A stretch of DNA of 64,000 nt, taken from assembly GCA_963708025.1 (NCBI GenBank), contig CAVPSB010000015.1, positions 1 to 64,000 of the forward strand. Reading direction: 5' to 3'. The stretch's first letter is position 1; the number at the start of each line of letters is the position of its first letter. This stretch comes from an uncultured Candidatus Rokubacteria bacterium (GTDB lineage Bacteria > Methylomirabilota > Methylomirabilia > Rokubacteriales > DASRDR01). Shown here one piece after another: positions 1 to 13,324 of this stretch. The notes beneath the pieces are model-generated. The model made no database searches and had not been told where the DNA came from. It worked only from the letters and a program-made list of their open reading frames with translations. Both the position numbers and the translations under genes were made by a program.

Positions 1-509
<509 letters not shown>

Positions 510-525
<16 letters not shown>

Positions 526-1661
526 ACGGCTCCATCGTTCCGAAGACCGCGACGCCCCGGGGCTGGGAAGGTCGCCCGCCCACGCGCTGGGCGGAGCGGG
601 GGGTCCCGCGACGGACCTTCGTCAAGTTCTGCGCCGCCATGACGGCCGTCCTGGCGCTGCCTGACCGCTACCTGCCGCGGGTCGCCGCGGCGCTCGAGCA
701 GGTCCGTCGCCCGGCGCTGGTGTGGCTCGAGTTCCAGGACTGCGCCGGGTGCACCGAGTCCTTCCTCCGCGCGAGCCGCCCCTCGGTGGGCGACATCGCG
801 CTGGACATCCTCTCGGTCAACTACCACGAGACCATCATGGCGCCGTCGGGGAAGGCGGCGGAGAAGTCACTGATGGACACGGTGAGGAACGAGAAGGGGA
901 AGTATCTGGTGGTGGTCGAGGGCTCGATCCCCACCGGGGACGGCGGGATCTACTGCACCATCGGCGGCCGGACGGCGCTCGACATCGCCAAAGAGGTGTG
1001 CGGCAGCGCCGCCGCGACCATCACGGTGGGCGCCTGCGCCTTCTACGGGGGCTGGCCGTCGGCCAAACCCAATCCCACCGGGGCCGTCGGCGTCCAGGAC
1101 GCGGTGCCGGGTCTCACGCTGATCAACCTGCCCGGCTGCCCGCCCAATGCCGTCAACATCACCGCGACCATCGTCCACTTCCTCACCTTCGGCACGCTGC
1201 CGGCGACCGATCAGCAGGGCCGGCCACTGTTCGCCTACGGCGAGCGCATCCACGACCGCTGCGAGCGGCGCGCCCACTTCGACGCCGGCCAGTTCGTGGA
1301 GGAGTGGGGCGACGAGGGGCACCGCAAGGGCTGGTGCCTGTACAAGATGGGCTGCAAGGGGCCCGCGACCTATCACAACTGCCCCGTGGTCCGCTGGAAC
1401 GACGGGACGAGCTGGCCGGTGGGTGCCGGGCACGGCTGCGTCGGCTGCTCCGAGCGGGATTTCTGGGACACCATGACGCCGTTCTACCGGCGCCTGCCGC
1501 CACTGCCCGGTGCCGGCGTGCAGACCACGGTGGACCGCATCGGCGGCTGGATCGTGGGCGGCACCGCAGCGGCTTTTGCCGCCCACGGCGTCGTCAGTAC
1601 CATCCGCGCCAAGACCCGGCCGAAGGAACAGGGACAGCAATCGAAAGAGGAGGCCAGGTGA
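510..1661 (+). CDS. hyaA: Group 1 [NiFe]-hydrogenase small subunit with Tat signal and C-terminal membrane anchor
   Basis: RRTFVK twin-arginine motif; [32 protein letters not shown] and HGCVGC Fe-S motifs; no extra proximal Cys of the O2-tolerant type; ATG at 510. Confidence 0.93.
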
Positions 1662-3370
1662 TGCCGAAGATCGCGATCGACCCCATCACCAGGATCGAGG
1701 GGCACCTCCGGATCGAGGCGCAGGTGGAGGGTGGCAACGTCGCGGAGGCCTGGAGCTCGAGCACGATGTTCCGTGGCATGGAACTGGTGCTCAAGGGGCG
1801 CGACCCGCGCGACGCCTGGCTCTTCGCCCAGCGCATCTGCGGCGTCTGAACGACGGTTCACGCCGCCTGCGCCGTGCGCGCAGTGGAAGACGCTCTCGGT
1901 ATCAAGATCCCGGATAATGCCCGGATCATCCGCAACCTGATCGCGGGGATCCAGTACGTCCAGGACCACGTGATCCACTTCTATCACCTGCACGCCCTGG
2001 ACTGGGTGGACATCACGGGCGCGCTCAAGGCCGACCCCGGCGAGACTTCCAAGCTCGCCCAGTCCCTCTCGCCCTGGCCCAAGTCGAGCACAACCTACTT
2101 CAAGACCGTCCAGGATCGCCTGAAGAAGTTCGTGGAGTCTGGGCAGCTCGGCCTCTTCGCCAACGGCTACTGGGGCCACCCCGCCTACAAGCTGCCGCCA
2201 GAGGCCAACCTCATGGCGGTGGCGCACTATCTCGAGGCCCTGGACTGGCAGCGCGAGGTGATCAAGATCCACGCGATCCTCGGGTCCAAGAACCCGCACC
2301 CGCAGACCTACCTGGTCGGCGGGATGGCCATCCCGCTGGACCCCAACAGCGCCGCCGCGCTCAACGCCGACAAGCTGGCGCTCCAGCATCAGCTCCTGAT
2401 GACCGCCAAGGAATTCGTGGACCAGGTCTACGTCCCCGACGTCCTGGCCATCGCCCCGTTCTACAAGGACTGGGCCGCGCTCGGTGCCGGCGTCGGCAAC
2501 TATCTCGCCTACGGCGACTACCCCATCGACACGAGCGGCGACCCGGCGCGGCTCTGGCTGCCGCGGGGCGTGATCCTGAATCGCGATCTCTCGACGGTCC
2601 ACCCGATGGACCACAAGCAGATCACGGAGTGGGTCACCCGCTCCTGGTACGAGTACAGCGACGGCGACGGCAAGGCCAGGCACCCCTGGGACGGCGAGAC
2701 CAACCCGAAGTACACCGGCCCCAGGCCGCCCTACGAGTTTCTCGAGACCGACAAGAAGTACTCTTGGCTCAAGGCGCCGCGCTACAACGGTCTGCCGATG
2801 GAGGTGGGGCCGCTCAGCCGCATGCTGGTGGCCTATGCCTCGGGTCACAAGGCCGTGAAGCCGGCCGTGGACGGCGCGCTCAAGGCGCTCGGCGTGGGCC
2901 CCGCCGCGCTCTTCTCCACGCTCGGGCGTATCGCCGCCCGCGCCGTCGAGACCCAGGTGATGGCCGCCGAGCTGCTGGCCTGGCACGCCCAGCTGGTCGC
3001 CAACATCAAGCGGGGGGACCTCAAGATCCACGCGGGCGAGCGCTGGGACCCCGCCACGTGGCCGAAGGAGGCGCAGGGCTGGGGCTTCCACGAGGCCCCG
3101 CGCGGGGCCCTCGGCCACTGGGTCCGGATCAAGGACGGCGCCATCGTCAACTACCAGTGCGTGGTGCCGAGCACCTGGAACGCCTCGCCGCGAGACGGCA
3201 AGGACCAGCGCGGCCCCTACGAGGCCTCTCTCCTCGGCACGCCGGTGGCCGATGCGAACCGGCCCGTGGAGATCCTCCGCACGGTGCACTCCTTCGACCC
3301 TTGCATGGCGTGCGCGGTCCACGTGACCGGCCCGGCACGCGAGCCCATCACGCGCATCCAGGTCGCCTAG
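1661..3370 (+). CDS. hyaB: Group 1 [NiFe]-hydrogenase large subunit, 569 aa if the in-frame TGA at 1847-1849 (codon 63) is read through (candidate Sec)
   Basis: [19 protein letters not shown] continues in the same frame into the 1874..3370 [32 protein letters not shown] plus cleavable tail; TGATG overlap with the small-subunit stop. Confidence 0.93.
1863..1886 (+). promoter_or_regulatory. Putative bacterial SECIS stem-loop downstream of the in-frame UGA
   Basis: CTGCGC(1867-1872)/GCGCAG(1878-1883) stem with loop CGTGC, G at loop position 2; extended by CCG/TGG with bulged C1866; loop starts 24 nt after the UGA. Confidence 0.55.
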
Positions 3371-3380
3371 GAGCCGCGCC

Positions 3381-4022
3381 ATGAAGGGCGAGCGCGTCTA
3401 CGTCTGGGAGGTCCCGGTGCGCCTCACCCACTGGGTGATCGTGCTGGCGATCCTCGTGCTGTCCGCCACGGGCTTCTACATCGGTCACCCGGTGGTTGGC
3501 GGGTCGGTCTCGCTCATGGCCTGGGTCCGCGGCATCCATCGCCTGACGGCCTGGGTCTTCGTGGCGAGCCTCTTGCTCCGGACCTACTGGGCCTTCGCGG
3601 GCAACCAGTGGGCCTCGTGGCGCGTGCTATTCCCGTACCTGACGGCCGAAGGGCGGCGCGGCATGGGGGGCGTCTTCAGCTACTACATCTTCTTCCGCTG
3701 GCGCCCGCCATCTTTCGTCGGCCACAATCCGCTGGCCGGGACCGCCTACTCTTTTGTGGTGCTGCTCATGATCGTCCAGGTCGTCACGGGCTTCGCGCTG
3801 CAATCGCCGGGCGGAGGCGGCTGGCGGCATGCCCTCTTCGGCTGGGTCTTCTCGGTGCTGAGCCTGCAAGGGGCGCGCCTCGCTCACCACCTGATCATGT
3901 GGCTGCTCCTGGGCTTCATGGTCCACCACGTCTACAGCGCCGCCCTCATGGACGCCGAGGAGAAGAACGGCACCCTGACCAGCATCTTCACCGGCTACAA
4001 GTTCGGGGGGCGCCGCGCGTGA
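3381..4022 (+). CDS. hyaC: Ni/Fe-hydrogenase b-type cytochrome subunit
   Basis: YVWEVPVRLTHW, GHNPLA, and HH...HH heme ligands; four hydrophobic helices. Confidence 0.93.
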   Translation: MKGERVYVWEVPVRLTHWVIVLAILVLSATGFYIGHPVVGGSVSLMAWVRGIHRLTAWVFVASLLLRTYWAFAGNQWASWRVLFPYLTAEGRRGMGGVFSYYIFFRWRPPSFVGHNPLAGTAYSFVVLLMIVQVVTGFALQSPGGGGWRHALFGWVFSVLSLQGARLAHHLIMWLLLGFMVHHVYSAALMDAEEKNGTLTSIFTGYKFGGRRA

Positions 4023-4558
4023 CGGCACGCACGCTCGTGCTGGGACTCGGCAACATTCTCCTCCGGGACGAGGGGATCGGCGTGTGGGTGGCCGAGTCGC
4101 TCAGCCGCGAGTTCGGCTTTCCACTGGACGTCGCCACGCTCGAGGGCGGCACCCTGGGGCTCGACCTGCTCCCTCGCCTCGACGGCGTCGAGCGGCTCCT
4201 CCTGGTCGACGCGGTGAAGCTCGGCCGCGAGCCGGGCGAGATCGTCCGGCTCGAGGGCGATGCGGTCCCGGCGGCCCTCGACGTCAAGATCTCTCCCCAT
4301 CAGGTCGGAGTGCAGGATCTGCTGGCCGCGGCGCGGCTCATGGGCCGCGAGCCGCCGCTGATCGTGCTCTGGGGCATGGAGCCCGAACGTCTCGACCCGG
4401 GGACCGGCTTCTCGCCGCGGGTGGCCGAGGCTCTCCCTCAGCTCCGGGATGGGGTGCTCGACGAGCTCAGGCTCTGGGGCGTGCCGGGCGAGCCGGTCGC
4501 GGACGCCGCTCCGCCGCCGGTCTGGTGGGAGGCGCCGGGGGTCGGGAGGCCACGATGA
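4019..4558 (+). CDS. hyaD: Hydrogenase maturation endopeptidase (HyaD/HybD family)
   Basis: LGLGNILLRDEGIG, EGGTLG, VDAV and SPHQ motifs; GTG start overlaps the cytochrome b stop. Confidence 0.92.
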   Translation: MTARTLVLGLGNILLRDEGIGVWVAESLSREFGFPLDVATLEGGTLGLDLLPRLDGVERLLLVDAVKLGREPGEIVRLEGDAVPAALDVKISPHQVGVQDLLAAARLMGREPPLIVLWGMEPERLDPGTGFSPRVAEALPQLRDGVLDELRLWGVPGEPVADAAPPPVWWEAPGVGRPR

Positions 4559-6834
4559 GCGTCGTGACGGCCCGACGCATCGTGGTCGAGGGCGTGGTGC
4601 AGGGGGTGGGCTTCCGTCCCTTCGTCTACGGGCTGGCCACCCGCCGTGGGCTGGCGGGCTGGGTGCGGAACACGGCCTCGGGAGTGGAGATCGAGGTAGA
4701 GGGGCCGCCCGCCGCGCTCGAGGCTTTCCTCGGCGACCTGCGCGGCGAGCGCCCGCCGCTGGCCCACATCGAGCGGCTCCGCGAGGCCGACGCGCTCCCG
4801 CAGGGCCGGGATGCCTTCGAGATCGAGCAGTCCCTCGACGGGGATGGGTTCCAGCCCGTGTCGCCCGACGTGGCGACCTGCCCCGAGTGTCTCCGCGAGA
4901 TCATGGACCCCCGGGACCGGCGCTCCGGCTATCCCTTCACCAACTGCACGGACTGTGGCCCCCGCTTCACCATCATCCGCGCCGTCCCCTACGACCGGCC
5001 CCGCACCACCATGGCCGGCTTCATCATGTGTCCCCGCTGTCGGGCGGAGTACGAGGATCCCCGCGACCGACGGTTCCATGCCCAGCCCAATGCCTGCCCC
5101 GATTGCGGGCCGCGCCTGAGTCTGCTGGACGCCGGCGGTGACCCGTTGCCCGGGGACCCGCTGAGCGAAGCCCGCCGACTGCTCGCGGGCGGGCGCATCG
5201 TGGCCATCAAGGGCATCGGCGGGTTTCACCTGGCGTGCGACGCGACCAGCGAAGCGGCGGTGAGCCGGCTGAGGGCGCGGAAGGGGCGCGAGGGCAAGCC
5301 GCTGGCCCTCATGGTGGCGGATCTTCGGGACACCGAGCGGTTGTGCGTGATCTCGACCGAGGAGCGGAGGCTGCTCGCCTCGACGGCGCGGCCCATCGTG
5401 CTCCTTCGGGCGCGCCAGGCCTCCGGGGTCGCGCCCTCGGTGGCCCCGGGCCTGGGGCGGCTCGGCGTGATGCTGCCGTACTCCCCACTGCATCACCTGC
5501 TGTTCAACGCGCCAGACGGGACTCTCCCCCCACTGGTCATGACCAGCGGAAACCGGAGCGAGGAGCCCATCGCGACCGATAATGCCGACGCCCTCGACCG
5601 GCTCTCGGGCATCGCCGACGCATTCCTGCTTCACGACCGGCCGATCCACGTCCGGTGCGATGACTCGGTGACCCGGGTGGCGGCCGGGGGCGAAGTCCCC
5701 ATCCGCCGCTCCCGCGGATACGCGCCGTTCCCGGTGCGGCTGCCGTTCGAGTCCCACCCTGTGCTGGCGGTGGGCGCCGACTTGAAGAGCGCGGTCTGCG
5801 TCACGCGCGGGCCGTACGCCTTCGTGAGCCCGCACATCGGGGACCTCGAGAACGTCGAGACCTACGTCTCCTACCAAGGCATGGTCGACCGCATGGTGGA
5901 GCTCTTCCGGGTGCGGCCGATTGCCCTGGCGCACGACCTCCATCCGGACTACCTCTCTACGCGCTACGCGCTCGGCCTGAACCCTGAGCTGCCGCGGGTG
6001 GCCGTGCAGCACCACCACGCCCACGTGGCGGCGTGCATGGCCGAACACCGCCTCACGGGCCCGGTGATCGGGGTGGCCTTCGACGGCACCGGTTACGGCC
6101 CCGACGGGGCCGTCTGGGGCGGGGAGTTCCTCGTGGCCGACTACGCCGGGTTCGAGCGGGTCGCGCACCTGGGTTACGTGCCGATGCCCGGCGGCGATCG
6201 CGCGGCGCGGGAGCCGTTCCGCATGGCGCTGGCCCACCTCCTCCGGGCGTTCGGCGAATGGGACCCCGACCTGCCCCCCCTCCGGGAGGCGACGGAGGCG
6301 GAGCGGGGGATGATCCGCTGGCAGATCGAGCGGGAGCTCAACGCGCCGCTCACCTCGAGCATGGGCCGGCTCTTCGACGCCGTCGCCTCCCTCGCGGGCG
6401 TGCGCCACCGCGCGCGCTTCGAGGCGCAGGCGGCCATGGAGCTGGAAGCGCTGGCCGAGGGGCTGGCCGGCGCGCCCTATCCGGTCGAGATCACGGGCGG
6501 CGCGCCGCTCGTCCTCGAGCCCGGCCCGGTGATCCGGGGGGTGGTGGACGACCTTGCCGAGGGAACGCCTCCGGCGCGGATCGCCGCCCGCTTCCACGCC
6601 ACGGTGGCGGAGGCCGTCGTCCGAGTCTCCGAGCGGGTGCGCGCATCGAGGGGGCTCGACCGGGTGGTGCTGACCGGCGGCGTCTTCCAGAACGCGATCC
6701 TGCTCGGCGCGACCCGCCAGGGACTCGACGCGGGCGGCTTCGAGGTCTTCAGCCATCACCTGGTTCCCCCCAACGACGGAGGCATCGCGCTCGGCCAGGC
6801 GGCGGTGGCCCACGCGCGTCTCCAGGGGGCCTGA
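4555..6834 (+). CDS. hypF: Carbamoyltransferase HypF
   Basis: GVVQGVGFRP acylphosphatase domain, CxxC zinc fingers, QHHHAH, FDGTGYG, PPNDGGIALGQ. Confidence 0.96.
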   Translation: MSVVTARRIVVEGVVQGVGFRPFVYGLATRRGLAGWVRNTASGVEIEVEGPPAALEAFLGDLRGERPPLAHIERLREADALPQGRDAFEIEQSLDGDGFQPVSPDVATCPECLREIMDPRDRRSGYPFTNCTDCGPRFTIIRAVPYDRPRTTMAGFIMCPRCRAEYEDPRDRRFHAQPNACPDCGPRLSLLDAGGDPLPGDPLSEARRLLAGGRIVAIKGIGGFHLACDATSEAAVSRLRARKGREGKPLALMVADLRDTERLCVISTEERRLLASTARPIVLLRARQASGVAPSVAPGLGRLGVMLPYSPLHHLLFNAPDGTLPPLVMTSGNRSEEPIATDNADALDRLSGIADAFLLHDRPIHVRCDDSVTRVAAGGEVPIRRSRGYAPFPVRLPFESHPVLAVGADLKSAVCVTRGPYAFVSPHIGDLENVETYVSYQGMVDRMVELFRVRPIALAHDLHPDYLSTRYALGLNPELPRVAVQHHHAHVAACMAEHRLTGPVIGVAFDGTGYGPDGAVWGGEFLVADYAGFERVAHLGYVPMPGGDRAAREPFRMALAHLLRAFGEWDPDLPPLREATEAERGMIRWQIERELNAPLTSSMGRLFDAVASLAGVRHRARFEAQAAMELEALAEGLAGAPYPVEITGGAPLVLEPGPVIRGVVDDLAEGTPPARIAARFHATVAEAVVRVSERVRASRGLDRVVLTGGVFQNAILLGATRQGLDAGGFEVFSHHLVPPNDGGIALGQAAVAHARLQGA

Positions 6835-6847
6835 GAAGGGAACGGAC

Positions 6848-7144
6848 ATGTGCCTGGGCGTGCCGGGCAGAGTGCTGGAGGTGCGCGGCCTCGTGGCCAT
6901 CGTCGACTTCTGGGGCCTGCGCCGGCCCATCCTCCTCGACAGCGTGGATCAGCCGGTGAGCCCGGGTGACTACATCCTGAACCACGTGGGCTTCGCGATC
7001 CGCCGCATCCCGCCCGAGGAGATCGGGGAGACGCTGGCCCTCTACGAGCAGCTGCTGCGCGAGGCGGGGGACGATGTGATGGCGGCCGATGTGCGGGGCG
7101 AGATCCGAGCCACCGGCGGAGAGATGGACCATGCCGACGGCTAG
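6848..7144 (+). CDS. hypC: Hydrogenase chaperone HypC
   Basis: MCLGVPG N-terminus and GDYILNHVGFA. Confidence 0.93.
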   Translation: MCLGVPGRVLEVRGLVAIVDFWGLRRPILLDSVDQPVSPGDYILNHVGFAIRRIPPEEIGETLALYEQLLREAGDDVMAADVRGEIRATGGEMDHADG

Positions 7145-8276
7145 CCAGGACCAGCCGGTGTCCCAGCTCAAGTTCCGCGATCCGGCGAAGGCGCGAGCGC
7201 TCGCCGCGGCGCTGGAGCGCCTCACGCGCCGGATCGGGCGGGCCCCGGTCTCGGTCATGCACGTCTGCGGCAGCCACGAGCAGGCCATCGCCAAGTTCGG
7301 GCTGCGGGCGACATTCCCCAAGGGCCTGAACGTCATCATGGGGCCTGGCTGCCCGGTCTGCGTCACCGACGTGCCCGAGGTGGACGAGGCGGTGGTGCTG
7401 GCCATGCAGGGCGTCCGGATCGCGACCTACGGGGACATGGTGAAGGTGCCCGGCACCGTGAAGTCGCTGGCCGACGCCCAGGCCGACGGTGCCAGGGTCC
7501 ACGTGGTCTACAGCGTCGCGCAGGCGGCGGCGCTGGCCCGCGAGACCGACGAGGAGGTGGTCTTTTTCGCGTCGGGCTTCGAGACAACCGCCGTCGCCAC
7601 GGCCGCCGTCATCCTCCGCGACCCGCCCCCCAACTTCTCGGTGCTCTCCGCCCACAAGTACATCCCTCCGGTCATGGAGATCGTCGCCGAGATGCCCGGG
7701 ACCCGCGTCGAGGGGTTCCTGGCCGCGGGGCATGCCGCCACCATCACCGGCTGGGGGATCTTCGAGCGCTTCGTCGAGCGCTACCTCATCCCGGTGGTCG
7801 TGGCGGGCTTCGAGCCCCTCGACATCCTGGCCGGGCTGGCGAAGCTGCTCGAGGTGATCCACGACGGGCAGCCGCGCGTGGAGAACATGTACCCGCGATG
7901 CGTGACGCGCGAGGGCAACCTGCGCGCGCAGGAGCAGCTCTGGAGGGTGTTCCGACCGGTGGGCGGCCGGTGGCGCGGCATCGCCCACGTGCCGAACGGC
8001 AACCTCCGCCTCCGCGACGAGTGGGCCCACGTGGACGCGAGGCGGCGCTTCCGGATCGACGTGGCCGGCCTCTGGGACTACGCGCCGTCTGCGCTCGTCC
8101 AGGACTGCGTCTGCGGCGACATCATGGCAGGGATCGCCTCGCCCACAGACTGCGCGCTGTACGGCAAGGAGTGCCTGCCGGAGACGCCGGTGGGGGCCTG
8201 CATGGTCTCGAGCGAAGGCACCTGCAGGATCTGGCACCAGTACGGCGGCCACCCCGATCTCGGAGGAGCGCCGTGA
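7131..8276 (+). CDS. hypD: Hydrogenase maturation protein HypD
   Basis: CGSHE, GPGCPVC, GFETT and GACMVSSEGTC motifs. Confidence 0.95.
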   Translation: MPTASQDQPVSQLKFRDPAKARALAAALERLTRRIGRAPVSVMHVCGSHEQAIAKFGLRATFPKGLNVIMGPGCPVCVTDVPEVDEAVVLAMQGVRIATYGDMVKVPGTVKSLADAQADGARVHVVYSVAQAAALARETDEEVVFFASGFETTAVATAAVILRDPPPNFSVLSAHKYIPPVMEIVAEMPGTRVEGFLAAGHAATITGWGIFERFVERYLIPVVVAGFEPLDILAGLAKLLEVIHDGQPRVENMYPRCVTREGNLRAQEQLWRVFRPVGGRWRGIAHVPNGNLRLRDEWAHVDARRRFRIDVAGLWDYAPSALVQDCVCGDIMAGIASPTDCALYGKECLPETPVGACMVSSEGTCRIWHQYGGHPDLGGAP

Positions 8277-9313
8277 GAGCGCGGCCGCCCCTCCTCGACC
8301 AGCGCATCAGCCTCAAGCACGGGGCCGGCGGCCGGGCCATGCGGGCGCTCATCGAGGGCCTCTTCGTGAATGGCTTCGCCGAGACGCCCGTGGACGGGAT
8401 CGGCCTGGCCGCGATGGACGATGGAGCCGCGCTCCGGGTCGGCGACCGCTGGCTCGTCATCACCACCGACTCCCACGTGGTCCACCCGGTCTTTTTCCCG
8501 GGCGGCGACATCGGCCGGCTGGCCATCGCGGGGACGGTGAACGACCTGGCCATGATGGGCGCCACCCAGGTGCTGGCCCTCACTTGCGCCGTGATCCTCG
8601 AGGAGGGTTTCGCCCGCTCGGATCTCGAGCGCATCCAGGCGTCCATCCACAGCACCTGCCGTGAAGCAGGCGCCGTGATCGTCACGGGCGACACCAAGGT
8701 CATGGGCCGGGGGGAGCTCGACGGCATCGTGCTCAACACGACGGGCATCGGCTTCACCGACCGCGTGGTGCCCGACTCGGGTCTCCGGCCCGGTGACCGC
8801 ATCCTCGTCACCGGCACCATGGGGGACCATGGCTTCGCCATCATGGCGCTGCGCAAGGGGCTCGAGCTCGAGGCCGACCTCCGCTCCGACGTGGCCCCGC
8901 TCAACGATCTCGTCGCCCGCGCGCTCGCTGCCGGCGGAGGCGCAGTGACGGCGATGAAGGACCCGACCCGCGGGGGGCTGTCGAGCGCGCTCCACGAGAT
9001 GGCCGACAAGAGCGGCGTCGGCATCGTGCTGGACGAACGGTCCGTGCCCGTGTCACCGGTGGTCGGAGCGGCCGCCGACTTGCTGGGCATCGACCCGCTC
9101 CACATCGCCAACGAAGGCAAGGCGGTGCTGGGCGTCCGGCCGGAGGCGGCGGAGCGGGTGCTGGCGGCGCTCCGCGCCCACCCGCTCGGGGAGAACGCGG
9201 CCGTCATCGGGACATGCATCGCCGAGCACGCAGGCGCGGTGATCCTGGACACGGGTTTCGGGCGGCGGCTGCTCTCCGAGCCGGAGGGGGAGCCGCTGCC
9301 CCGGATCTGCTGA
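8273..9313 (+). CDS. hypE: Carbamoyl dehydratase HypE
   Basis: HGAGG, GTVNDLAM, GDTKV, DPTRGG, ANEG and C-terminal PRIC. Confidence 0.95.
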   Translation: MRARPPLLDQRISLKHGAGGRAMRALIEGLFVNGFAETPVDGIGLAAMDDGAALRVGDRWLVITTDSHVVHPVFFPGGDIGRLAIAGTVNDLAMMGATQVLALTCAVILEEGFARSDLERIQASIHSTCREAGAVIVTGDTKVMGRGELDGIVLNTTGIGFTDRVVPDSGLRPGDRILVTGTMGDHGFAIMALRKGLELEADLRSDVAPLNDLVARALAAGGGAVTAMKDPTRGGLSSALHEMADKSGVGIVLDERSVPVSPVVGAAADLLGIDPLHIANEGKAVLGVRPEAAERVLAALRAHPLGENAAVIGTCIAEHAGAVILDTGFGRRLLSEPEGEPLPRIC

Positions 9314-9323
9314 GGAGACGGCC

Positions 9324-10175
9324 ATGGCCGTAGAGCTGAGCATGAAGCACATCCGGATGGAGCGCGACGGCGCGGTGGGTGTCATCACCATCGACCGGCG
9401 AGAGCGCTTCAACTCGCTCGACGTGGAGGCCGCCCGGGACTTCCGTAGGGCGGGCCTCCGGTACGCCCGCGACGACGAGATCCGCGCCGTGGTGATCCGG
9501 GGCGCGGGCGGGGTCTTCTGCAGCGGGGCCGATCTCAAGTACATCCGGGCGGGCGGCGAGCGGGCCGAGCTCGGCTACCTCTCGCCGGACGCCCGGGAGG
9601 TCCCGGGCGGGTACGGCGAGATCTTCAAGCAGATCCTCGAGTACATCCACAGCACGATCTCCGAGATCAAGCGGGCCCCGAAACCGTTCATCGCCGCCGT
9701 GGACGGCATGGCGGCGGCGGGCGGCTTCGGAATCGCGATGGCTTGCGATCTCGTGCTGGCCAGCGCCCGCGCCACGTTCGAGTGGGCCTACCCGAAAACC
9801 AGTCTCACCGGCGCTGAGAGTTCCACCTTCTTTCTGCCCCGGCTCATCGGGCTCCGGCGATCGATGGAGCTGGTCCTGCTCAACCCGCGCCTCGACGCGC
9901 GGGCTGCGCTGGAGATGGGCCTGATCACTGCCGTCCACCCGGCCGAGGCCTTCGAGGACGAAGTGAGTGCGCTGGCCCGGAGGCTCGCCGAGGGCCCGAC
10001 CCGAGCCTACGGCGTCGCTAAGGCGCTGCTCAACCAGGCGGCGGGAGTGGACCGGCTCGACTACCATCTCGACCGGGAGCTCGAGCACCTCGCCCGCATC
10101 GCCGACGGGCGCGACTTCGCCGAGGGGCTCGAGGCCTTCTTCGCGAAGCGGCCGCCGCGCTTCGAGGAAGCCTAG
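9324..10175 (+). CDS. Enoyl-CoA hydratase/isomerase (crotonase) family protein
   Basis: FCSGADL, KPFIAAVDGMAAAGG and EGLEAFFAKRPPRF motifs; 10 nt after hypE with a GAGGAG RBS. Confidence 0.9.
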   Translation: MAVELSMKHIRMERDGAVGVITIDRRERFNSLDVEAARDFRRAGLRYARDDEIRAVVIRGAGGVFCSGADLKYIRAGGERAELGYLSPDAREVPGGYGEIFKQILEYIHSTISEIKRAPKPFIAAVDGMAAAGGFGIAMACDLVLASARATFEWAYPKTSLTGAESSTFFLPRLIGLRRSMELVLLNPRLDARAALEMGLITAVHPAEAFEDEVSALARRLAEGPTRAYGVAKALLNQAAGVDRLDYHLDRELEHLARIADGRDFAEGLEAFFAKRPPRFEEA

Positions 10176-10350: not shown

Positions 10351-11337
10351 ATGAGCGCCAAGTGGGTCCGATCGTCCGTCGTTGCCGTCGTGTGCCTCGC
10401 GCTCGTCGCGGGCCTGCCGTCCTCGGAGGCGGCCGCACAGGCCAAGTACCCGAGCCGCCCGATCCAGCTCATCTGCCCGTGGGCCGCGGGCGGGGGCACC
10501 GACCGCATCGCCCGCATGGTGGCGGTGCTGCTGGAGAAGGAGCTGGGACAGCCTGTGACCGTCGTAAACCGGACCGGCGGCAGCGGCGCCGTGGGCCACA
10601 CGGCGGGAGCGACGGCGACGCCTGACGGTCACACGATCACCATCGTGACCGTTGAGCTGACGATGATGCATTGGATGGGCCTGACGCCGCTCACCTTCCG
10701 GGAGTTCACGCCTGTCGCCCTGCTCAACATCGACCCAGCCGGCGTCCAGGTCGCGGCCAACTCCGAGTGGAAGACGGTGAAGCAGTTGCTCGACTGGATC
10801 AAGGCCAACCCCGGCAAGGCCAAGGCCTCAGGGACGGGGCGCGGCGGCAGCTGGGACATCGCCCGCGCCGGGATGCTGAAGGCGGCCGGGATTCCGATCG
10901 ACGCGTTGCCGTGGGTGCCGAGCACCGGGGCCGCCACGGGGCTTCAGGAGCTGGTGGCCGGCGGCATCCAGGTCGTGACCGCGAGCCTGGTCGAGGGACG
11001 GCCCCTCATCGAGGCCGGCAAGGTGCGCCCGCTGGCCCACATGGCCGACAAGCGCGACCCGGCGTTCAAAGATGTCCCGACGCTCAAGGAGCTCGGGATC
11101 AACTGGACGATGGGCGCGTGGCGGGGCATCGCGGCGCCCAAGGGCACGCCTCCCGAGATCGTTGCAATCCTAGAGAAGGCGTTGGACAAGGTCGTCCGGA
11201 CCAAGGAGTACAACGACTTCATGAACGCGGCGCCGTTCGGCATCCTCTGGAGCCCAGCGGCCGAGTTCGGGAAGTTCATGGCCGAGCAGGACGCGACCAT
11301 GGGGGTGCTGATGAAGGAAGCGGGCGTCGCCAAGTAG
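10351..11337 (+). CDS. tctC: Tripartite tricarboxylate transporter substrate-binding protein
   Basis: Signal peptide, YPSRPI, PWAAGGGTD, NRTGGSG, VPTLKE. Confidence 0.92.
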   Translation: MSAKWVRSSVVAVVCLALVAGLPSSEAAAQAKYPSRPIQLICPWAAGGGTDRIARMVAVLLEKELGQPVTVVNRTGGSGAVGHTAGATATPDGHTITIVTVELTMMHWMGLTPLTFREFTPVALLNIDPAGVQVAANSEWKTVKQLLDWIKANPGKAKASGTGRGGSWDIARAGMLKAAGIPIDALPWVPSTGAATGLQELVAGGIQVVTASLVEGRPLIEAGKVRPLAHMADKRDPAFKDVPTLKELGINWTMGAWRGIAAPKGTPPEIVAILEKALDKVVRTKEYNDFMNAAPFGILWSPAAEFGKFMAEQDATMGVLMKEAGVAK

Positions 11338-11355
11338 CGTCTCCGGCCGCTCCGC

Positions 11356-11817
11356 ATGAAGATCAGCGACACGGTGGTGGGCGTCGGCTTCGTCGGGGCC
11401 GGCGCCCTCATCGTGGCTGGCACGCTCAACTATCCCTCGCTCGACGGCGGCCACCCGGGCCCCGCCCTGTTCCCGCGGATCCTCGGCACGCTCATGGCGG
11501 TTCTCGGCGCGGCGTTGGCCGTGCAGGGCGCGCGCGCGCGGGACGCAACCCAGGCCGTCGAGTGGCGGCGGCTGCACCGCAACATCGGCCTCGTCAACGC
11601 GCTGTTCGTTCTCGTCGGCGTGCTCGCCTACCTCGGCCTCGTGGAGTGGCTGGGCTTTCTCATCACCGGCACGCTGCTCCTCTTCCTCCTGATGTGGCGC
11701 CTCCGGGTACCGCCCCTCCGGGCGCTGATGGTGGCGATCGCGTTCATCACGATCGTGCACTTCCTGTTCGTGAAGGTCCTCCGGGTCCCGCTGCCGCTCG
11801 GCCTGCTCTGGTGGTGA
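11356..11817 (+). CDS. tctB: Tripartite tricarboxylate transporter small membrane subunit
   Basis: GPALFP motif, four TM segments, LRVPLPLG C-terminus; lies between tctC and tctA. Confidence 0.88.
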   Translation: MKISDTVVGVGFVGAGALIVAGTLNYPSLDGGHPGPALFPRILGTLMAVLGAALAVQGARARDATQAVEWRRLHRNIGLVNALFVLVGVLAYLGLVEWLGFLITGTLLLFLLMWRLRVPPLRALMVAIAFITIVHFLFVKVLRVPLPLGLLWW

Positions 11818-11821
11818 TCGG

Positions 11822-13324
11822 GTGATCGAGCACGTCGTCCAGGCCCTGGTCCTCCTCGCGAGCTGGAAGGTCCTCCTCACCATCGTGATCTGCAGCGTCT
11901 ACGGGCTGTTCGTGGGGGCGATCCCGGGGCTCACCGCGACCATGGCCGCGGCGCTCCTGGTGCCGTTCACGTTCTTCATGGACCCGCTCTCGTCGCTGGT
12001 GGCCATCGTCACCATGTCGGCTATGGCGATCTTCGCCGGGGACATCCCGGCCGCGCTGGTCCGCATCCCGGGCACGCCGTCGTCGGCGGCCTACACCGAG
12101 GACTCCTACGAGCTGACGAAGCAGGGCAAGGCGGAGCTGGTCCTGGGCGTGGACGTCGTGACCTCGGCGATCGGCGGGCTCATGGGCGCGGTGGTCCTGA
12201 TGGTCGCCGCCCCGCTCCTGGCCGAGGTGGCGCTCCGCTTCACGTCGTTCGAGTACTTCTGGCTGGCCGCGCTCGGCCTGTCGGCCACCGTCATGATCGC
12301 GAGCACTCTGCCCCTGAAGGCCGGTCTCGCGCTCCTGTTGGGGCTCTTCTTCTCGACCATCGGCGTGGACATCACCCTCGGCTACCCGCGGTTCACGTTT
12401 GGGACGACCGAGCTGCTGAACGGCCTGGATTTCATCCCCGCGATGATCGGGCTGTTCGGGGTCTCCGAGGTGCTGCGCAACATGGGGAGCGCCACGCTGA
12501 GCTTTCCGATCGCGCCGGTCCGGGCCGAGCGGATCTTCCGGGGGGTGGCCGAGACCTTGTGGCGCTACAAGGCCAACATGGTCCGCGCCGGCGCCATCGG
12601 GACCTTCATCGGCATCCTGCCCGGGGCGGGCGCCGACATCGCGGCCTGGATCGCCTACGCGGTCGCCCGCCGCTTCTCGCGCGAGCCGGAGAAGTACGGG
12701 AAGGGGGCGATCGAGCCGATCGTGGACGCGGGGACCGCCAACAACGCCTGCCTGGCCGGCGACTGGGTGCCGGCCCTCGTCTTCGGCATCCCGGGCGACT
12801 CGATCACCGCGATCGTGATCGGGGTCCTGTACATGAAGGGGCTGCGGCCCGGCCCCATGATCTTCGAGCAGCAGCCCCAGCTCGTCTACGCGGTGTACCT
12901 CTCCTTCATCATGGCCAACCTCCTGCTGATCCCCTTCGGCTACCTGGCCATCAAGGCGAGCGGGTTCATGCTCCGCGTGCCCCGCAACGTCCTGATGCCG
13001 GCGATCCTGATGTTCTGCGTGGTCGGCGCCTTCGCCATCAACAACAGCTTGGTGGACGTGGTGCTGATGCTGGCGATGGGCGTCTTCGGCTACTTCCTCG
13101 AGGCCAACGGGATCCCCGTCGCGCCGATCGTGCTGGGCATGGTGCTAGGCCCCATCCTCGAGCAGAACTTCATGGTCAGCATGATCAAGACCGAGTGGGA
13201 TCTCACCCAGTTCGTCCAGCGCCCGGTCGCGCTCATCCTCGGCGGGCTCACCGTGCTGGTCTGGCTGACGCCGCTCTACCCCTGGCTCCTCGCGCGCGGG
13301 CGGTGGCTCGCGACGTCCCGCTGA
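11822..13324 (+). CDS. tctA: Tripartite tricarboxylate transporter permease
   Basis: GAIPGL, RIPGTP, GILPGAG and GIPGD motifs; polytopic membrane protein. Confidence 0.92.
   Translation: MIEHVVQALVLLASWKVLLTIVICSVYGLFVGAIPGLTATMAAALLVPFTFFMDPLSSLVAIVTMSAMAIFAGDIPAALVRIPGTPSSAAYTEDSYELTKQGKAELVLGVDVVTSAIGGLMGAVVLMVAAPLLAEVALRFTSFEYFWLAALGLSATVMIASTLPLKAGLALLLGLFFSTIGVDITLGYPRFTFGTTELLNGLDFIPAMIGLFGVSEVLRNMGSATLSFPIAPVRAERIFRGVAETLWRYKANMVRAGAIGTFIGILPGAGADIAAWIAYAVARRFSREPEKYGKGAIEPIVDAGTANNACLAGDWVPALVFGIPGDSITAIVIGVLYMKGLRPGPMIFEQQPQLVYAVYLSFIMANLLLIPFGYLAIKASGFMLRVPRNVLMPAILMFCVVGAFAINNSLVDVVLMLAMGVFGYFLEANGIPVAPIVLGMVLGPILEQNFMVSMIKTEWDLTQFVQRPVALILGGLTVLVWLTPLYPWLLARGRWLATSR

Follow-up and report, generated by a model that had tools for sequence, protein, structure and literature searches.

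An in-frame TGA at the N-terminal bridging-ligand codon of a Group 1 [NiFe]-hydrogenase in a Rokubacteria genome, very probably a selenocysteine codon

We analysed a window of 64,000 nucleotides (the whole stretch of DNA under study, G000:C15:1-64000) from the assembly of an uncultured Candidatus Rokubacteria bacterium (here G000; 8.17 Mb in 49 contigs, rated 99.67% complete and 8.18% contaminated). Close to its start lies a [NiFe]-hydrogenase operon with a TGA in frame inside the large-subunit gene. This gene (1661-3370, plus strand) is one 569-codon frame that translates as MPKIAIDP...QRIC60-G-V-TGA63-TTVH...DPC548-M-A-C551-AVH554, and its sole internal stop is the TGA at 1847-1849, at the second Cys position of the RxCGxC motif. 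Hence, the observation from which an earlier note on this DNA started, a large subunit with TGA at codon 63 and no frame change, is confirmed: an in-frame TGA occupies the codon of the bridging Cys. The C-terminal motif is ordinary, as that note had stated, with DPCMAC read at 3296-3322. The features of the locus are as follows.

4-480, plus strand: hypB, 3' part; the contig and the window begin inside the gene (TIGR00073, 204 bits, profile positions 59-213)
510-1661, plus strand: [NiFe] hydrogenase small subunit (TIGR00391 hydA, 433 bits)
1661-3370, plus strand: large subunit, 569 codons with one in-frame TGA (PF00374; 3myr_B, 774 bits, residues 3-554)
1838-1840, plus strand: codon 60, TGC, the first (Ni-terminal) Cys of RxCGxC
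1847-1849, plus strand: codon 63, TGA, the second (Ni-Fe bridging) ligand position, proposed selenocysteine (Sec)
1867-1883, plus strand: hairpin resembling a selenocysteine insertion sequence (SECIS), CUGCGC-CGUGC-GCGCAG, 6 bp with a 5-nt loop
3296-3322, plus strand: C-terminal motif DPCMACAVH (Cys548, Cys551, His554), both ligand codons Cys
3381-4022, plus strand: Ni/Fe-hydrogenase b-type cytochrome subunit (TIGR02125, 141 bits, cut-off 121.5)
4019-4558, start approximate, plus strand: HyaD/HybD-type maturation endopeptidase (TIGR00072, 138 bits)
4555-6834, plus strand: hypF carbamoyltransferase (TIGR00143, 790 bits, profile positions 1-739 of 741)
6848-7144, plus strand: hypC/hupF chaperone (TIGR00074, 62 bits)
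7089-8276, start uncertain, plus strand: hypD (TIGR00075, 390 bits)
8273-9313, plus strand: hypE (TIGR02124, 391 bits, profile positions 1-332 of 332)

The genes around the TGA-containing frame look intact. From 510 to 9313, each hydrogenase and hyp gene is a single frame that matches its NCBIfam profile end to end, so the claim that the other hydrogenase and maturation genes are intact stands, with hypB cut by the contig start. The earlier note had also argued that a stop on a ligand codon does not fit an error pattern of 1-nt indels in otherwise intact genes; this argument falls away within the operon (510-9313), where no such lesion was seen. The small subunit starts at an ATG at 510, with GGGGAGGG just before it, carries the twin-arginine (Tat) motif RRTFVKF from 609, and has the standard proximal-cluster motif C-A-G-C in translation. 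It lies directly upstream of the large subunit and ends in an ordinary TGA (1659-1661); hence, TGA is also a normal stop in G000. Behind His554, the large subunit has a 15-residue tail that is predicted to be cleaved off on maturation.

The hydrogenase belongs to Group 1 by motif, context and similarity. RIC-G-V-(TGA)-TTVH and DPCMACAVH are found in a PF00374 protein, PF00374 also matches all the relatives, and the gene stands among a Tat-signal small subunit (upstream), a b-type cytochrome and a C-terminal endopeptidase. Its best solved relative is the membrane-bound enzyme of Allochromatium vinosum (3myr_B, 774 bits), followed by Escherichia coli Hyd-1 at 655 bits; canonical Group 1a [NiFeSe] enzymes give 302-327 bits, in partial alignments over residues ~177-558. 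Since the operon content and the structure matches agree, the G000 enzyme is, as judged from its sequence, a Group 1 hydrogenase that is exported by Tat and linked to cytochrome b. The A. vinosum enzyme aligns with it end to end and shares the L1 and L2 motifs (QRICGVCT... and DPC.AC.VH), but its ligands are all Cys. The two also differ in that the G000 operon has a HyaC-type cytochrome b (TIGR02125), and the A. vinosum enzyme uses Isp-type partners.

Two other classes were ruled out. The O2-tolerant Group 1d enzymes have a 6-Cys proximal cluster, with two extra Cys and C-T-C-C replacing C-x-G-C, and the G000 small subunit has C-A-G-C. The canonical [NiFeSe] Group 1a enzymes carry DPUxxC (U, selenocysteine), and here the C-terminal motif is DPCMAC and the similarity only partial. 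Orthologs at 63-68% identity occur in Geobacter, whose Hya enzyme is of group 1f, in Terriglobales/Acidobacteriaceae and in Roseiflexus. We therefore suspect HydDB subgroup 1f for the G000 enzyme, a lead only, which comes from these relatives; one report (PMC5900883) places Acidobacteria hydrogenases in group 1f.

The TGA is retained among orthologs. We compared the best 80 loci from metagenome contigs and the best 80 from genome contigs, together with G000 and its relative G013, so that the counts below are not prevalence figures. The count covers the 161 loci whose N-terminal 130 residues show an identity of at least 60%; L166 lacks the N-terminus. A few of these loci are duplicates, and the set comprises 152 distinct 90-nt segments. 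The ortholog comparison that the earlier note had proposed as a check gives TGA at codon 63 in 60 of the 161 listed loci and TGC or TGT in 101. Taking both N-terminal ligand codons together, 101 loci are CxxC, 45 UxxU, 15 CxxU and none UxxC; Sec at the first N-terminal codon occurs only alongside Sec at the second. Wherever it can be read in the listed loci, the C-terminal motif is DPCxxC, with no TGA at its first codon. Thus the gene has two marks of a selenoprotein gene: an in-frame UGA that aligns with Cys in homologs, and its retention as UGA among orthologs. It also has the pattern of the N-terminal CXXU type, with UGA at the second N-terminal Cys and Cys at the three other ligand codons.

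Database proteins bear the trace of the same codon. Of the 120 clusters that a protein search listed, 68 have lengths of 487-498 aa, start behind the motif and are all 80-100% identical to the query, and the remaining 52 are full-length and at most 79% identical. These short clusters begin past the motif because gene callers truncate at the in-frame TGA. Full-length database proteins from Sec-type lineages (for example P0069, Thermodesulfovibrionales) show Cys, but the display prints U as C, so that a Cys-type protein and an annotated selenoprotein look alike.

Within the phylum of G000, orthologs were found in 6 of 251 species genomes, five with two TGAs (UxxU) and only G000 with one (CxxU); a seventh match is a paralog at 54% identity. 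A search of 60 related genomes gave one ortholog only, a truncated copy in G013 (L028, G013:C13:443756-447826, minus strand); its other matches, which have Cys, Ser or Thr in the ligand columns, were rejected as distant paralogs or proteins of Nuo type. L028 is the nearest ortholog at species level (96% identity) and has TGA at both N-terminal ligand codons. Its match ends after residue 357 and is followed directly by the 3' end of hypD and by hypE, so that about 5.5 kb is missing (the 3' part of the large subunit, the cytochrome b, protease, hypF and hypC genes and most of hypD). Over codons 64-350, it differs from G000 by 4 synonymous and 9 non-synonymous changes, as if selection had been relaxed once the deletion had occurred; it is possible that the deletion is a misassembly.

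Ligand states are scattered over the gene tree (FastTree, 148 distinct full-length proteins, motif columns removed; the root is insecure). At least four clades hold Sec-type genes: one from Methylomirabilota, with three UxxU genes and G000; one from Nitrospirota/Thermodesulfobacteriota, where 21 genes are UxxU and 1 is CxxU; and two from Chloroflexota, in which the states are mixed. At least 18 ligand-state changes are needed on this tree, compared with a mean of 47.3 after shuffling. The pattern looks like one in which ligand states interconvert often and the bridging Sec is the first to be gained or the last to be lost, since UxxC is absent from the 161 listed loci.

A short hairpin behind the TGA covaries among the Sec-type genes. 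In an alignment of 56 distinct Sec-type segments (A1; helix columns 36-41 and 47-52), a 6-bp helix begins 17 nt behind the second TGA codon position, and the G000 copy (1867-1883) has a folding energy of -8.8 kcal/mol. We found 90.5% of the helix cells paired, with changes on both sides in 34 cells at four of the six stem pairs; neither the observed pairing nor the observed covariation score was attained in any of 500 shuffles, and sliding the partner by 1-3 columns as a control left 31-63% paired. In this fixed register, the mean number of pairs out of six is 5.26 for UxxU (n = 42), 5.93 for CxxU (n = 14) and 2.70 for CxxC segments (n = 96). The second loop position is G in 56 of 56 Sec-type vs 53 of 96 Cys-type segments, a count in which kin are not independent. 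The loop reads C/G-G-U-G-C/A, apart from one GGUCC among the 56. According to PMC13582414, the bacterial SECIS consensus has G as the first or second base in its apical loop, and the putative hairpin here is a stem-loop shortly downstream with G at the second position. Some of the stem compensations alter amino acids on both strands (for example Cys/Ala to Ala/Gly, in the codons of columns 37-39 and 49-51). Hence, selection appears to act on the RNA, since compensatory stem changes that cost amino-acid changes are otherwise hard to explain. A lower stem drawn by RNAalifold on A1 (columns 13-32, including the UGA) was set aside, as all its pairs are invariant and therefore uninformative either way.

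The frame evolves as protein on both sides of the TGA. Over codons 1-59, the synonymous and non-synonymous differences of G000 number 14 and 1 against L137 and 19 and 2 against L058; over codons 64-350, the counts are 75 and 26 against L137 and 66 and 28 against L058. By these counts there is purifying selection on both sides of the codon. Hence, a 62-residue product or a re-initiated fragment is excluded as the functional form, because both halves evolve as protein-coding sequence.

Some changes particular to the G000 lineage fall in the N-terminal motif and in the hairpin stem. Relative to L217 and L057, G000 has 30 synonymous and 12 non-synonymous lineage changes, and its sisters have 42:6 and 28:12. 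Among the G000-specific changes are TGA60>TGC and the pair TCC>GCC (S71A) and CGA>CGC, which turns a U-A stem pair into G-C. Cys60 of G000 is most simply read as a secondary change from Sec to Cys in a UxxU ancestor, since on parsimony the five other orthologs of the phylum as well as L057, L058 and L137 are all UxxU.

The two positions of that stem-pair change, 1871 and 1879, also co-vary in environmental contigs. Parts of the window are present in 20 public runs from 16 studies, six of the runs being on record as RNA. We compared contigs for four runs from four studies (two DNA and two RNA libraries; contigs from an RNA library are not proof of transcription). Among the differences listed for these contigs there is no alternative letter at 1847-1849, and codon 63 is spanned by contigs of run X5 (1661-1990, 3 differences) and run X15. 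In X15 and X16, 1871 G>T and 1879 C>A appear jointly; the two positions pair with each other in the stem.

G000 encodes the machinery for Sec insertion. The search for selA, selB, selD and tRNA-Sec (selC) that the earlier note had called for found all four, above curated cut-offs. The tRNA-Sec gene (C32:206338-206431, 76.2 bits) has the anticodon UCA, an 8-bp acceptor stem, G73 and an encoded CCA, and selA (598 bits) and selB (372 bits) adjoin it. It is the only tRNA with a UCA anticodon among the 50 that ARAGORN reports in the whole assembly; the next Rfam tRNA-Sec matches score at most 44 bits, below the 47-bit threshold, and have ordinary tRNA lengths. Two further ARAGORN calls, C14:20467-20561 (95 nt) and C16:177363-177447 (85 nt), were considered as possible recoding tRNAs and rejected as poor GC-rich folds lacking a UCA anticodon; with four-letter 'anticodons', 78% GC and mismatched stems, they are probably false positives. 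The selD gene (L019, G000:C7:89881-93804) is itself a selenoprotein gene, with an in-frame TGA in SHGAG-U-ACK near locus position 1531 and a GC-rich hairpin about 15 nt past it. A second selD-like match (C23:88505-89419) lies inside an 833-residue open frame and has no stop. Among 50 of the 80 genome-contig loci (all 26 of Sec type and, by number, the first 24 of the 53 of Cys type), selA scored above cut-off in 24 of the 26 Sec-type genomes.

TGA63 is very probably a functional Sec codon, and we consider it highly likely that UGA63 is translated as Sec through insertion directed by SelB and the SECIS, at the N-terminal bridging ligand and with Cys at the other three. The SelB and tRNA-Sec system would decode UGA63 under the direction of the short hairpin 17 nt downstream (1867-1883), giving a full-length 569-residue precursor. 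Hyp-dependent metal insertion, followed by C-terminal cleavage behind His554, would then yield a Tat-exported, cytochrome b-anchored, H2-oxidising Group 1 hydrogenase, in which Cys60 and Cys548 would be terminal and Sec63 and Cys551 bridging ligands of the Ni-Fe site. We infer the actual insertion of selenium at position 63 from the comparative evidence above, and a bridging role for that position from homology with solved Group 1 enzymes and from PMC13582414 and PMC8020662. The physiological direction is presumably H2 uptake to quinone. The earlier note had proposed just such a bridging Sec in a membrane-bound, cytochrome b-linked Group 1 enzyme, and the conserved TGA, the covarying hairpin, two-sided purifying selection, the Sec machinery, the Tat signal and the cytochrome b all speak for it.

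Several results weigh against this interpretation. In the accessible literature, we found no protein-level evidence of any N-terminal Sec hydrogenase. The hypA profile (TIGR00100) has no match anywhere in the G000 assembly, despite its completeness rating of 99.67%; hypA may be in the gap that precedes the start of the contig. Co-occurrence of selA discriminates little, as it is also present in 18 of the 24 Cys-type genomes, and none of the sel genes shares a contig with the window, in an assembly with 8.18% contamination. The nearest ortholog by species (G013) is truncated. The plain minimum-free-energy fold of the 64 nt behind the TGA has z = 0.39 vs shuffles, and Cys-type segments are about equally stable in other registers (mean minimum free energy -8.5 vs -9.0 to -9.6 kcal/mol). 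Hence, support for the hairpin comes from covariation and register and not from energy. Finally, 15 of the 56 Sec-type segments, mostly of the type CCGCCUC...GAGCGG, break two pairs of the fixed register; by reading, these appear to form a bulged alternative, drawn by eye.

These points have to be set beside other ways in which the codon could be read. UGA63 could be translated as Cys by tRNA-ReC, a Sec-like tRNA with Cys identity that SelB would deliver to the same SECIS, and the product would then be an all-Cys enzyme. The SECIS and SelB evidence is equally compatible with this, and tRNA-ReC is reportedly more prevalent in genomes with UXXU motifs. However, the discriminator base G73 marks Ser/Sec identity and tRNA-Cys has U73, and the one UCA tRNA of the assembly has G73; ARAGORN and Rfam found no second Sec-like UCA tRNA with U73, although an unusual or unassembled tRNA could escape them. 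We regard translation as Cys as improbable. Similarly small is the chance that a near-cognate tRNA-Trp or tRNA-Cys reads through the codon independently of Sec, or that the codon serves mainly to restrain expression in a selenium-dependent way, most ribosomes stopping after 62 residues. Sec insertion does in general compete with termination, but an enzyme with Trp as a metal ligand would be dead, which does not match the purifying selection on the entire gene; moreover, a covarying hairpin with an invariant loop G is predicted by SelB decoding and not by leakiness, and the TGA state is maintained across several phyla.

That the TGA is an artefact of base-calling or assembly, or that a decaying gene has recently acquired a nonsense mutation, is very improbable indeed. 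The estimated contamination of about 8% leaves room for error, and the G013 ortholog, cut after residue 357 and with 4 synonymous vs 9 non-synonymous differences, shows that the locus can decay. Against error, TGA stands at the same codon in 60 of the 161 listed loci, from many independent assemblies and several phyla, and contigs of other studies retain it. Against decay, the G000 gene and operon are otherwise intact, and its lineage changes (30:12) are similar to those of its sisters (28:12 and 42:6). Hence, the alternatives that the earlier note had kept beside Sec, namely a base-call error, a nonsense mutation and a suppressor tRNA, are disfavoured by the distribution of the TGA, by the contigs that keep it and by the single UCA tRNA with its G73.

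A broader claim is that a widespread Group 1 clade naturally carries selenium on its N-terminal ligands, in some members as CxxU and in others as UxxU, with G000 as a natural intermediate; to this we give an even chance. The clade would extend over Methylomirabilota, Nitrospirota, Thermodesulfobacteriota and several Chloroflexota lineages. G000 would then be a case in which the terminal Sec went back to Cys, the bridging Sec was retained and the SECIS stem was repaired by a compensatory change.

N-terminal Sec in hydrogenases has been pointed out before, so that the earlier note's 'new type' does not hold. In Zhang and Gladyshev 2007 (PMC1976440), CxxU appears as a new Sec in a NiFe large subunit called 'FrhA', and PMC13582414 credits Baltazar et al. 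2011 (Eur J Inorg Chem) with two Group 1 and one Group 3 N-terminal CXXU sequences; PMC8020662 terms such hydrogenases 'purported examples'. This predicted class has the same arrangement as G000 (TGA at the second Cys of RxCGxC, all-Cys C-terminal motif) and is likewise known from sequence evidence alone. Hence, the G000 gene is a member of a class already predicted, not a new type. It differs from that class in the setting of its variant, an enzyme exported by Tat and linked to cytochrome b in a Methylomirabilota-like genome from soil, and in having nearest relatives that are all UxxU. What appears particular to G000, from these comparisons, is a natural CxxU derivative in an otherwise UxxU lineage of a widespread Group 1 clade, on which we found no biochemical study in the accessible literature. 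We found no description in the literature of UxxU, a Ni-Fe site with two seleniums, in Group 1, in a search that left subscription journals largely outside.

The nearest published parallel is in Group 4. Takano et al. (September 2026, PMC13582414) report 47 Group 4 energy-converting sequences (27 with CXXU, 4 with UXXC and 16 with UXXU). As in the clade of G000, Sec is only N-terminal, its distribution over the tree is mosaic and sel genes co-occur with it. Behind the UGA there is again a stem-loop whose first or second loop base is G, and in one group this G opens a Val GUG codon, as in G000. The Group 4 enzymes differ in being multisubunit, ion-translocating and on the cytoplasmic side, in their distant large subunit and in the presence of UXXC, unlike the 161 loci listed here. 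The canonical [NiFeSe] enzymes (Desulfomicrobium baculatum, 1CC1; Desulfovibrio vulgaris Hildenborough, 2WPN) resemble the proposed G000 enzyme as periplasmic Group 1 enzymes with one UGA-inserted Sec among the four Ni ligands, but their Sec is terminal, at the first position of DPUxxC, and the same codon is Cys in G000. The accessible part of a 2026 review (PMC13188914) lists only C-terminal UxxC hydrogenases.

An engineered enzyme indicates that a bridging Sec can work. According to Evans et al. 2021 (PMC8020662), E. coli Hyd-1 C79U has 13% of native H2-oxidation activity (42.6 vs 338 s-1), the highest of four Cys-to-Sec variants, and C76U has 3%; C79U is almost inactive at 10% O2. Hence, a bridging Sec seems feasible, since C79U retains 13% activity. 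Like the predicted G000 enzyme, C79U is a membrane-bound Group 1 hydrogenase whose Sec takes the corresponding bridging place in the N-terminal motif. It differs in being artificial, with Sec inserted at UAG by an EF-Tu-driven route, and in its 6-Cys, O2-tolerant background, whereas the G000 small subunit has C-A-G-C.

All that is known of [NiFeSe] structure and mechanism relates to a single site, the C-terminal motif's terminal Sec, and the one systematic engineering study calls this terminal-ligand position 'special' (PMC8020662). A natural bridging selenolate, and relatives with two Sec residues, would test that conclusion on an evolved scaffold, and such enzymes could reveal how bridging selenium affects H2 affinity, catalytic bias and O2 sensitivity. 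If the broader claim about the clade is true, two further selenium positions, a second and a third, are in natural use, unlike the engineering result, which singled out only the terminal ligand of the C-terminal motif. For annotation, the truncation by gene callers seen in 68 of the 120 listed relatives means that hydrogenase surveys of soil and sediment mis-annotate these genes and may misclassify them.

Downstream of the operon, three open reading frames at 10351-13324 have no NCBIfam match. They lie beyond a gene of the enoyl-CoA hydratase/isomerase family (9324-10175), which stands directly behind hypE and has a best NCBIfam E-value of 1.6e-50, below all curated cut-offs.

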